From a virus (taxonomy: Duplodnaviria; Caudoviricetes): a DNA stretch of 64,000 nucleotides. Location of the stretch: IMG/VR virus record IMGVR_UViG_3300042280_000089, positions 3,188-67,187 of that record, one strand, 5' to 3'. Made by a program: the position numbers and the translations under genes. The notes under the pieces were generated by a model. It searched no databases and was not told the DNA's origin. It was given only the letters and a program-made list of their open reading frames with translations. Shown here piece by piece: positions 6,890 through 9,021 of this stretch. Position 1 is the first letter of the stretch. Every line of letters begins with the position of its first letter.

Positions 6890-7069
6890 ATCTACTCCAA
6901 CAGATAGCAAGAGGCGGAAGTATATCAGCGTCATTCCCGTGGTCTACGGGAAGATGTGACAGATTTTCCCGTACTGTTGAATATTTAATGGGCGTAACTA
7001 ATTGAATTTAAAGGGGAAATTTTCCTTAAAAATATTCTTATACAGGGGAGGCAGCGCCCGGATGGGCGC

Positions 7070-7333
7070 CTATGGCTGACAAGGAACCGCTCGATACTCT
7101 TTCTTGGCACTCGGGCCACGTTGACTGACGGCATAGTCATTCAGCTCACGCCAGAAGCGCAAGCGCTCCTCGACTTTCTCTTCAGCTACACCGAATTCAA
7201 GACACAACCAATCTGACCAGACCAGTTCAGTCTCCGCATGACAGCCGTTGTAGTAACGACGCAGAGGATCGGTGTTAACGAGGATCCGTGTGCGGCACTG
7301 GATGGTGTGGGTACGATGCGTCTGTTCTGCCAT
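7070..7333 (-). CDS. hypothetical phage protein
   Basis: 87 aa with SD TAAGGA. Confidence 0.65.
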   Translation of the reverse strand: MAEQTHRTHTIQCRTRILVNTDPLRRYYNGCHAETELVWSDWLCLEFGVAEEKVEERLRFWRELNDYAVSQRGPSAKKEYRAVPCQP

Positions 7334-7354
7334 AGACGTATTCCTTAGAAAGCA

Positions 7355-7429
7355 CCGAGGCGAGACGAAGCCCTGTCGAGCACACCGCGCAGCGGTGCGC
7401 GCAAGACAGTGGCGAAGTCGTAGCCGAGG
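7355..7429 (+). other. 75-nt strand-specific ssDNA hairpin with tandem G.A mismatches and a GCA triloop
   Basis: Pairing CC/GG, GA/GA, GGC/GCC, GAC/GTC, GAA/GAA, GCC/GGC, TGTC/GACA, CACCGC-GCA-GCGGTG. Confidence 0.7.
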
Positions 7430-7459
7430 CTATTAGAAAAAGGATGTGAAAAAAGGGGG

Positions 7460-7495
7460 TTGCATCCTACTGATCGCATCAGTATAGTGCGCGCC
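7460..7495 (+). promoter_or_regulatory. sigma70 promoter with GC-rich discriminator, facing the att core and integrase
   Basis: TTGCAT-17 nt-TATAGT followed by GCGCGCC, with an A-tract upstream. Confidence 0.75.
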
Positions 7496-7513
7496 ATCGA
7501 ACGGCGGGACGCC

Positions 7514-7781
7514 GGGATACATGGAAAAAATTTCTTGTATCCCTACCTGTATCCCTGATCGTTCAAGTGGTGTAAGTGATTGATTTGAATAGTGCTTTCG
7601 AGTCTCTCCTCCCGCACCATTCTCCCTGTGATACCTTCCTATAGCTTCAAAAAAATCTCTTCTGAATCAGCACGTTACACCAGATCGCTTGATATACCTG
7701 CGCATAGCTTAACATGACCTTCATTACCTTTTTTGTATCCCAGTGTGTATCCTAAATTTCGGGGTACAACTTAGGGATACA
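7514..7781 (+). promoter_or_regulatory. attP region with arm-type integrase sites and IHF sites
   Basis: TGTATCCC-like sites at 7536, 7548, 7734, 7746 and inverted at 7514, 7761, 7774; IHF-consensus matches at 7573-7585 (reverse) and 7665-7677; sites on both sides of the core. Confidence 0.85.
7597..7619 (+). repeat. att core: 3' end of a tRNA-Leu (probably TAG type); not a full tRNA
   Basis: TTCGAGTCTCTCCTCCCGCACCA = T-loop, 3' T-stem, acceptor strand and CCA; the 5' half of the tRNA is absent. Confidence 0.85.
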
Positions 7782-7785
7782 CGAC

Positions 7786-9021
7786 ATGAAACGCACTGAC
7801 ATCAAGCGCCGCCCAATGGCGGACAGTGTACTGAAGACATTGGAACCGGAGGCCAAAGAGTACCGGGAGAAGGACAGTCCGGGCCTGTACTTTCGTGTTA
7901 AGCCAGACGGGAGTAAGTCATGGCAGCTGCGCTACAAGAATATGGAAGGAAAGTGGGCTTGGTTGGGTCTGGGTGGCTTTCCAGCTGTATCCGGTAAAGC
8001 GGCACGTAAGCGTGCGACTGAGCTGAATGAACTGGCAGCCGATGGGGTTGATATCAAAGCCCACCTGATGGAACAGGACGAGAAAAACCCTCCTGAAAAG
8101 GAAGGTGTGCTCTTTCGAGATGTAGCGGAACAGTGGTATCAGCGCAAGATTGCATCAGGTCGTTCAGCGAACACACTGGAACAGATGCGACGGTATCTGG
8201 ATGGGGATGTCTACCCAGTTATCGGGGATAAGGAGCTGACTGCGGTTACGCGCTGGGACTGTACCGAGATCCAGCGACGACTGGAGCGGCGTAAAGCGCT
8301 CAACATTGCCAAAAAGGTGCGTTCCTGGATAAGTCAGATATTCTCTCAAGCCATTGCAGAGAACCTGTGCGATCTGAATCCAGCCAGTGAGTTGCGGCAT
8401 ATTGCTGAGAAAGCGCCGGAAACCAAGCACTATCCGTACTTACTCGAAGACGAGTTACCTGCGTTCTTCAAAGCACTTAATGCTTCGCCTTCTCGTCAGA
8501 TTACACTGACACTGGTTCGGTTGGTGATATTGACAGCCTGTCGTCCGGGTATGGCTCGACTGGCCACTTGGGATGAATTTGACCTGAAAAACGCCTTATG
8601 GGTAATTCCAGCCAAACGCATGAAAATGCGACGGGATCATATCATTCCGTTGTCTACGCAAGCGGTGGCGTTATTACGTGATCTGCATGAACTGACTGGT
8701 TTGTCTACGTATGTGTTTCCTGGGAATGGCTCAATTCACCCGACATTGAGCGAAAACACAATCAATCAGGCACTGCGCCGGATTGGCTACAAGGATAAAT
8801 TGACAGGGCATGGCTCTCGCCATACGGCAGCGACGCTGCTTCGTGAACATGGGTGGCCCAGAGACTATGTTGAAACACACCTGGCTCATATCGAAAAAGG
8901 GGTAGCAGGTGTGTACAACAAAGCCCAGTATCTGAAGCAACGCCGCGAAATGATGCAGTGGTATGCGGACTATCTTACTGCATTGGAACAGGGAACTCCG
9001 GTTCCACCGGATCCGGTTTAA
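7786..9021 (+). CDS. int: P4-like tyrosine integrase
   Basis: N-terminal arm-binding domain (DSPGLYFRVKPDGSKSWQLRY); catalytic residues R(P), K, HGSR, H and Y (YNKAQY). Confidence 0.95.
   Translation: MKRTDIKRRPMADSVLKTLEPEAKEYREKDSPGLYFRVKPDGSKSWQLRYKNMEGKWAWLGLGGFPAVSGKAARKRATELNELAADGVDIKAHLMEQDEKNPPEKEGVLFRDVAEQWYQRKIASGRSANTLEQMRRYLDGDVYPVIGDKELTAVTRWDCTEIQRRLERRKALNIAKKVRSWISQIFSQAIAENLCDLNPASELRHIAEKAPETKHYPYLLEDELPAFFKALNASPSRQITLTLVRLVILTACRPGMARLATWDEFDLKNALWVIPAKRMKMRRDHIIPLSTQAVALLRDLHELTGLSTYVFPGNGSIHPTLSENTINQALRRIGYKDKLTGHGSRHTAATLLREHGWPRDYVETHLAHIEKGVAGVYNKAQYLKQRREMMQWYADYLTALEQGTPVPPDPV

Follow-up and report, generated by a model that had tools for sequence, protein, structure and literature searches.

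The DNA analyzed here, referred to as the window, is a 64-kb stretch corresponding to bases 3188-67187 of a 67,187-bp IMG/VR virus record with a CheckV completeness of 91%. On the basis of its 3525-aa virion RNA polymerase, its N4-type portal and major head protein, and its DNA polymerase, primase, exonuclease, and ThyX genes, the window was assigned to an N4-like phage; N4-like genomes with an integrase have been reported earlier (PMC10654107). The gene for a P4-type tyrosine integrase (int) is flanked by blocks of minus-strand replication genes. An identical integrase is present on three further contigs, and Marinobacterium stanieri has an integrase that is 74% identical. No near-identical DNA was found among GenBank phages or E. 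coli genomes, neither a lysogen nor the exact attR junction of this phage was found in viral contigs or species-representative genomes, order-level samples of 401 genomes yielded no primase or exonuclease homologs, and no known RNA family was detected within positions 7000-7900. Across the whole window, sigma-70-like sites are depleted (6 found versus ∼19 expected from first-order Markov shuffles), which fits a phage that transcribes most of its genes with its own polymerases.

The region upstream of int has the organization of a phage attachment site (Table 1). A core sequence that matches host tRNA genes occurs once in the window, and ARAGORN found no tRNA gene there; because only the 3' end of tRNA-Leu(UAG), as the core, is present and the gene itself is absent, the site is attP. 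Three TGTATCC(C/T) sites are located on either side of the core and the integrase possesses an Arm-DNA-bind_3 domain, as in the attP of a heterobivalent tyrosine integrase. The order in this intact attP is promoter-bearing arm, core, and int. The promoter-like site, positioned 101 nt upstream of the core and 290 nt upstream of int, thus lies in the arm opposite int, points at the core, and belongs to an element whose tyrosine integrase has a tRNA 3' end as its target, whereas the phage genes adjoining this arm run in the opposite direction. A scan of the plus strand found no terminator between the promoter-like site and int; 7612-7700 is unstructured, and the fold of 7496-7800 contains no stem followed by a U-run. 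No other sigma-70-like promoter was found ahead of int. The geometry is that claimed in the preliminary description, in which the promoter was said to read in attP through the core into int.

The same description had recognized TTGCAT-17-TATAGT-GCGCGCC with an upstream A-tract in this arm, and the motif was confirmed on the plus strand at 7437-7495. Hexamers at 17-nt spacing, a GC-rich discriminator, and an A/T-rich upstream tract, the features of stable-RNA promoters, are all present. The A6 tract with the GGG that follows it agrees with the consensus of the proximal UP-element subsite (AAAAAARNR), and its distance from the -35 hexamer is the usual one. A consensus scanner does not list the site, which falls below its threshold because the -35 hexamer matches at only three positions. 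When the requirements were set as TTG at -35, a spacer of 16-18 nt, at least five of six matches at -10, at least six of seven G/C in the discriminator, and an upstream A-tract, all of them fixed only after the site had been seen, it was the sole qualifying site on both strands of the 64 kb, and first-order Markov shuffles gave a mean of 0.02. The transcript predicted to start at 7496 would have a leader that includes all arm-type sites of the P arm (7514-7556). The sequence TGCATCCTA at 7461-7469, which overlaps the -35 hexamer, has a single mismatch to the arm-type site TGTATCCTA; speculatively, the integrase might bind over its own promoter here and regulate itself. Two other readings of the region were rejected: a minus-strand promoter for the open reading frame at 7070-7333, for which no acceptable -35 hexamer was seen on reading the sequence, and a LexA-type or other repressor operator in the spacer palindrome, which has only one good copy and is not conserved in the homologous arms described below. 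A long stable hairpin at 7355-7430 (z-score -4.6 for the plus strand and -3.4 for the minus strand; GCA triloop at its apex, 7380-7400) sits between the start of the open reading frame at 7070-7333 and the promoter-like site.

Table 1. Features of the attP region and of int in the window
Feature	Position	Strand	Remarks
Two phased A-tracts, UP-element-like	A5, 7437-7441; A6, 7449-7454	+	sequence reading
-35 hexamer TTGCAT	7460-7465	+	3/6 versus TTGACA (the TTG)
Spacer, 17 nt	7466-7482	+	sequence reading
Palindrome TACTGAT-CGC-ATCAGTA in spacer	7468-7484	+	perfect 7+3+7; single good copy in window
-10 hexamer TATAGT	7483-7488	+	5/6 versus TATAAT
GC-rich discriminator GCGCGCC	7489-7495	+	7/7 G/C; sequence reading
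Predicted start, A	7496	+	directly after discriminator
Arm-type site, P arm, GGGATACA (inverted)	7514-7521	+	in predicted leader
Arm-type sites, P arm, TGTATCCCT	7536-7544; 7548-7556	+	in predicted leader
GATTGATT box	7578-7585	+	11 nt before core; same distance in G039 unit 1, L156, and L157
attP core TTCGAGTCTCTCCTCCCGCACCA, 23 nt	7597-7619	+	last 23 nt of tRNA-Leu(UAG)
Arm-type site, P' arm, TGTATCCC	7734-7741	+	between core and int
Arm-type site, P' arm, TGTATCCT	7746-7753	+	between core and int
Arm-type site, P' arm, AGGGATACA	7773-7781	+	between core and int
int, P4-type tyrosine integrase, 411 aa	7786-9021	+	Pfam Arm-DNA-bind_3, Phage_int_M, Phage_integrase; PHROG 1

The host of the phage is likely a member of the Marinobacterium family, judging from sequence matches. 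A Marinobacterium metagenome-assembled genome (MAG; locus L100) contains an exact match to the core plus 3 nt, or 26 nt, within an operon that consists of a promoter (TTGACG-17-TAGGAT-ACGCACC), tRNA-Arg, tRNA-His, tRNA-Leu(UAG), a 14-nt gap, a second tRNA-His, and tig. The preliminary description had suggested checking whether a polycistronic tRNA operon surrounds attB, and for the predicted attB the answer is positive. The 14-nt gap leaves no room for a promoter. Since the genomes of this group hold only two tRNA-His genes, integration at tRNA-Leu(UAG) would leave half of the tRNA-His dosage without a promoter; because the distal tRNA-His duplicates another gene, its loss need not be lethal. 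Many genomes with the exact core have a tRNA-Leu(UAG) gene that is solitary or last in its operon, with no tRNA downstream. In two Armatimonadota MAGs (L114 and L120), a second tRNA-Leu(UAG) 3' end without a tRNA body is present ∼180 nt after the gene and may represent either a scar or an integrated element of very small size. The combination of a -10 hexamer with RCGCRCC also marks tRNA-operon promoters of candidate hosts, which read TATAAT-ACGCACC or TATAAT-ACGCGCC in the loci that were fetched. Capture of a host promoter by the phage was considered and rejected: the native promoter of the Arg-His-Leu operon is TTGACG/TTGACC-17-TAGGAT, and the pattern TTGCAT-N17-TATAGTGC was found in only 4 of 190 genomes of the family, with arms only in G039; the matches in the other three were ahead of protein genes or random.

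Homologous arms were found at the same tRNA gene in other elements. G039, a genome of the same family as the Marinobacterium MAG, encodes a 63%-identical integrase that adjoins the tRNA-Leu(UAG) of an Arg-His-Leu operon, corresponding to attL. On a separate contig of this genome, the right end of a BREX and HipBA island (unit 1) contains an A8 tract, TTGCAT, 17 nt, TATAGT, and GCCGCTCC, followed by arm sites TGTACAA, GATTGATT, and the tRNA-Leu core. Another arm related to it (unit 2) is located 2.9 kb further, directly before tRNA-His and tig with no terminator between. The island itself (L149; G039:C17:30000-49900) is a large one with PglZ and BrxL genes, and the promoter-bearing arm forms its end; the 2.7 kb behind it are what remains of a second element with EB_dh and DUF2231 genes and an arm of its own, which indicates two elements in tandem at tRNA-Leu(UAG). 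A search pattern blind to the promoter (GATTGATT, 9-13 nt, core) yielded two more arms from metagenomes, L156 and L157. L157 is a clean attR in which the promoter-like site, arm sites, and core are followed, after 21 nt, by the host tRNA-His, and L156 has a variant -10 hexamer, AATAAT, that retains A2 and T6. The TTGCAT hexamer is identical in G039 units 1 and 2, L156, and L157.

Comparison of the window with the G039-type arms gave identities of ∼35% for the leader and 41% for the spacer, whereas both hexamers are identical at six of six positions, the spacing is 17 nt, and the sequence that follows is GC-rich. The A-tract abuts the -35 hexamer in the homologous arms as well (A8 in the G039 type), and the spacer palindrome is not conserved. 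The recurrence of the hexamers, spacing, and GC-rich discriminator in arms that are otherwise ∼35% identical argues that the motif in the window is not a product of chance, and we consider this conservation to be stronger evidence for the site than the in-window statistics. Because the arm-type sites differ (TGTATCCC versus TGTACAA) while TTGCAT is kept, the hexamer is not simply an integrase site. At the other end of the G039-type elements, in attL, the core is separated from int by a hairpin and a canonical terminator, and a separate promoter-like site adjoins int. Immediately beyond tRNA-Leu, the int-side arm has a 9-bp hairpin (L146, 2830-2870, minus strand; L156, 3410-3440) that exhibits compensatory changes between relatives, GTAATTATG/CGTAATTAC versus GTAATCACG/CGTGGTTAC. 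No comparable motif was found in the closest integrase relatives with other tRNA targets (L002, L003, L014, L016, and Pseudomonas phage FBPa42), an absence across these five that may fit a role in operon repair but can also be set against the promoter interpretation given below. The phage among them, vB_PaeP_FBPa42 (L163), has a 55%-identical integrase and an internal attP, and no stable-RNA-type promoter was seen in its arm; integrases of this kind occur in isolated Pseudomonas podophages. The attR of the Pseudomonas-like tRNA-Leu(CAA) islands was not located by a 17-nt core search.

A related N4-like prophage was identified by searching the same bacterial family with the major head protein of the window phage. 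This prophage, in genome G115, spans ∼69.5 kb and is flanked by host DNA at either end; its major capsid protein, primase, and integrase are 82%, 56%, and only 33% identical, respectively, to those of the window. The backbone homology ends at the exonuclease gene and the next open reading frame, and the att/int module is located at a distance from the primase gene similar to that in the window. The prophage occupies the 3' end of tRNA-Cys within a Gly-Cys-Leu operon, the promoter-proximal part of which consists of TTGACA-17-TATAAT-ACGCACC, tRNA-Gly(GCC), and tRNA-Cys. At attR, the arm reads TAGACA-16-TATAGT-ACGCGCCATC (discriminator ACGCGCC), arm sites TGGGGG, tRNA-Cys core, 8 nt, and tRNA-Leu(UAA). 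Its predicted start, the A that follows ACGCGCC, is near G115:C19:116,342 (minus strand). The arm site, which the scanner scored at 10/12, is the sole promoter-like site that a 1.2-kb scan of this strand listed and lies ∼150 nt upstream of tRNA-Leu(UAA) with no terminator between them, and all phage open reading frames of at least 80 aa in the 3.8 kb beside attR are directed away from it. No tRNA-Leu(UAA) gene other than this one was found in the assembly; by standard decoding rules, this tRNA is required for reading UUA codons. The sole DNA similarity between the window arm and the G115 arm is a block of 17 nt that covers the -10 hexamer, discriminator, and start (7482-7498), of which 16 are identical. 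On this evidence we regard G115 as an independent case of what appears to be the same design at another tRNA operon. The gene downstream of the arm site is thus int in the window, tRNA-His in L157 and G039, and tRNA-Leu(UAA) in G115. The outward placement of the arm before host genes in attR, proposed in the preliminary description for the integrated state, is borne out by these relatives.

The reading that we consider probable, drawn from sequence comparison, is that the integrase-distal (P) arm carries a working sigma-70 promoter of the stable-RNA type that drives int in attP and rescues a tRNA in attR. In free phage DNA, transcription from the arm promoter would pass the arm-type sites and then the core, with its tRNA-Leu(UAG) 3' end, before reaching int. 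Integration is predicted to occur at the tRNA-Leu(UAG) of a host operon with the order Arg-His-Leu-His, which would place int behind the host operon promoter at attL and the arm promoter, facing outward, at attR. There it would transcribe the distal tRNA-His, cut from its own promoter by a prophage of ∼67 kb, so that one operon would become two working ones; in the G039 type, the terminator after tRNA-Leu in attL would make these two complete transcription units. The sequences show directly the promoter elements, their conservation, the attR geometry of the relatives, and the operon context, whereas promoter activity, the start site, growth-rate (stringent) control, and selection for tRNA rescue are inferred. 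The proposal in the preliminary description that the promoter gates integrase expression fared less well. The arm site does read into int in attP, but gating is the weaker half of the idea because int in attL would follow the host tRNA-operon promoter, and no intervening terminator was found.

Part of this evidence could also be accommodated if the promoter were real and had been selected only for int expression from unintegrated DNA, transcription of tRNA genes from attR being an unselected by-product. We consider this unlikely, although it agrees with the lack of another sigma-70-like promoter or of a terminator found between the site and int in the window, and although experiments have established such a role in int expression for the promoters of ICEclc, ICEKp1, and ICEEc1, elements with tRNA-Gly or tRNA-Asn as their target. 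Because such integrative and conjugative elements (ICEs) carry outward promoters at single tRNA genes, tRNA rescue is not needed to explain a promoter of this kind. Selection for int expression alone does not readily explain why the G039-type elements keep the arm promoter despite having a terminator before int and an int-proximal promoter-like site, nor why the only promoter-like site found facing the otherwise promoterless, single-copy tRNA-Leu(UAA) of G115 is that of the arm. The likeness of the GC-rich discriminator and A-tracts to host tRNA promoters likewise points away from it.

It is less probable still that there is no promoter and that the hexamers represent sites for recombination proteins (an extra arm-type integrase site, Xis, IHF, or a repressor operator) or have arisen by chance. 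The one-mismatch resemblance of TGCATCCTA to an arm-type site, the perfect 7+3+7 palindrome of the spacer, and the poor match of the -35 hexamer would suit a reading of this sort, but TTGCAT and TATAGT are kept in arms where the arm-type sites have become TGTACAA and the palindrome is lost, and in G115 the -10/discriminator block is the same even though the integrase and its arm sites (TGGGGG) differ; chance is further disfavored by the expectation of 0.02 per window under the post hoc criteria. The spacer palindrome could also form a hairpin with a 7-bp stem and 3-nt loop and, in single-stranded DNA, serve as a signal of the N4 type, whether as a promoter for the virion RNA polymerase or as an origin-like structure. 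Virion RNA polymerase promoters of N4 are hairpins with stems of 5-7 bp and loops of 3 nt, sizes that fit, and the phage encodes the corresponding 3525-aa polymerase; the hairpin is missing, however, from the homologous arms, including those of non-phage islands, and the region sits among middle-type replication genes, which makes this explanation highly improbable.

A stable-RNA-type promoter that drives int before integration and a distal tRNA afterward, the reading preferred here, has a partial precedent in conjugative elements. The outward, integrase-distal promoters Pcirc of ICEclc and P3'end of ICEKp1 and ICEEc1 were demonstrated experimentally to drive int after excision, and in the integrated state of these elements the host tRNA promoter drives int (PMC5812530, PMC13023037). 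The site in the window is like Pcirc and P3'end, which are constitutive sigma-70 promoters, in being integrase-distal, outward facing when integrated, and joined to int across attP, and the elements share a P4-type integrase, a tRNA 3'-end target, and the placement of int behind the host tRNA promoter upon integration. The integrase half of the idea is therefore already known from conjugative elements. In contrast to Pcirc and P3'end, the carrier here is an N4-like phage, along with related non-conjugative islands, and the phage attP is internal to the genome, so coupling of the promoter to int needs no circularization; moreover, the comparison being one of design, the target tRNA here lies within a polycistronic operon, with the stable-RNA features aimed at the severed distal tRNA. 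The new aspects are thus the phage carrier, the stable-RNA architecture, and the internal tRNA-operon target with the promoter aimed at the distal tRNA. A full-text literature search found no paper on a tRNA-operon repair role or on the phage setting, which is not proof that they are undescribed. Compared with host rrn P1 and tRNA-operon promoters, the window site has the same A/T-rich upstream tract, near-consensus -10 hexamer, RCGCRCC, and purine start 7-8 nt after the -10 hexamer; it differs in residing on a mobile element, in its weaker -35 hexamer, and in having a leader of ∼100 nt full of integrase arm sites before the first tRNA sequence.

Two further systems resemble the proposed rescue in part. 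Mycobacteriophages exhibit tRNA-dependent lysogeny in which the phage supplies a whole tRNA gene (PMC10865867). The likeness lies in a temperate phage that offsets the damage of its own integration to the host tRNA supply, and the difference is that the N4-like phage would contribute a promoter alone, the orphaned host tRNA gene itself being intact. SXT, which integrates at prfC, brings a new promoter and 5' end for its target gene. There too the mobile element's own promoter restores expression of an interrupted gene, but the target is the 5' end of a protein-coding gene, whereas here a P4-type integrase and a tRNA operon are involved.

We tentatively suggest, as a plausible extension, that some temperate N4-like phages and islands may carry a dedicated attP promoter for operon repair that makes the internal genes of polycistronic tRNA operons available for integration, is regulated together with host stable RNA synthesis, and is needed for lysogen viability or fitness if the distal tRNA is single copy, as with tRNA-Leu(UAA) in G115. 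If this is true, mobile elements can use sites inside tRNA operons without starving the host of a tRNA, and a host tRNA gene comes to depend on a prophage-borne and probably growth-rate-controlled promoter. The promoter-switch logic of conjugative elements would thereby be extended to a phage group long thought to be strictly lytic, and G115, a real lysogen, offers a testable prediction.

Other N4-like material was recovered from the same family. The G025 contig looks like a free phage without an att module of this kind, and the G062 sequences are cut by contig ends. In both G062:C16 (L165 and L167) and G025:C35 (L166 and L168), the match to the major head protein gene of the window is split in two, with both parts in a single open frame of 473-484 aa, versus 389 aa in the window, an arrangement that points to an insertion in the capsid gene, for instance an intein or additional domain.
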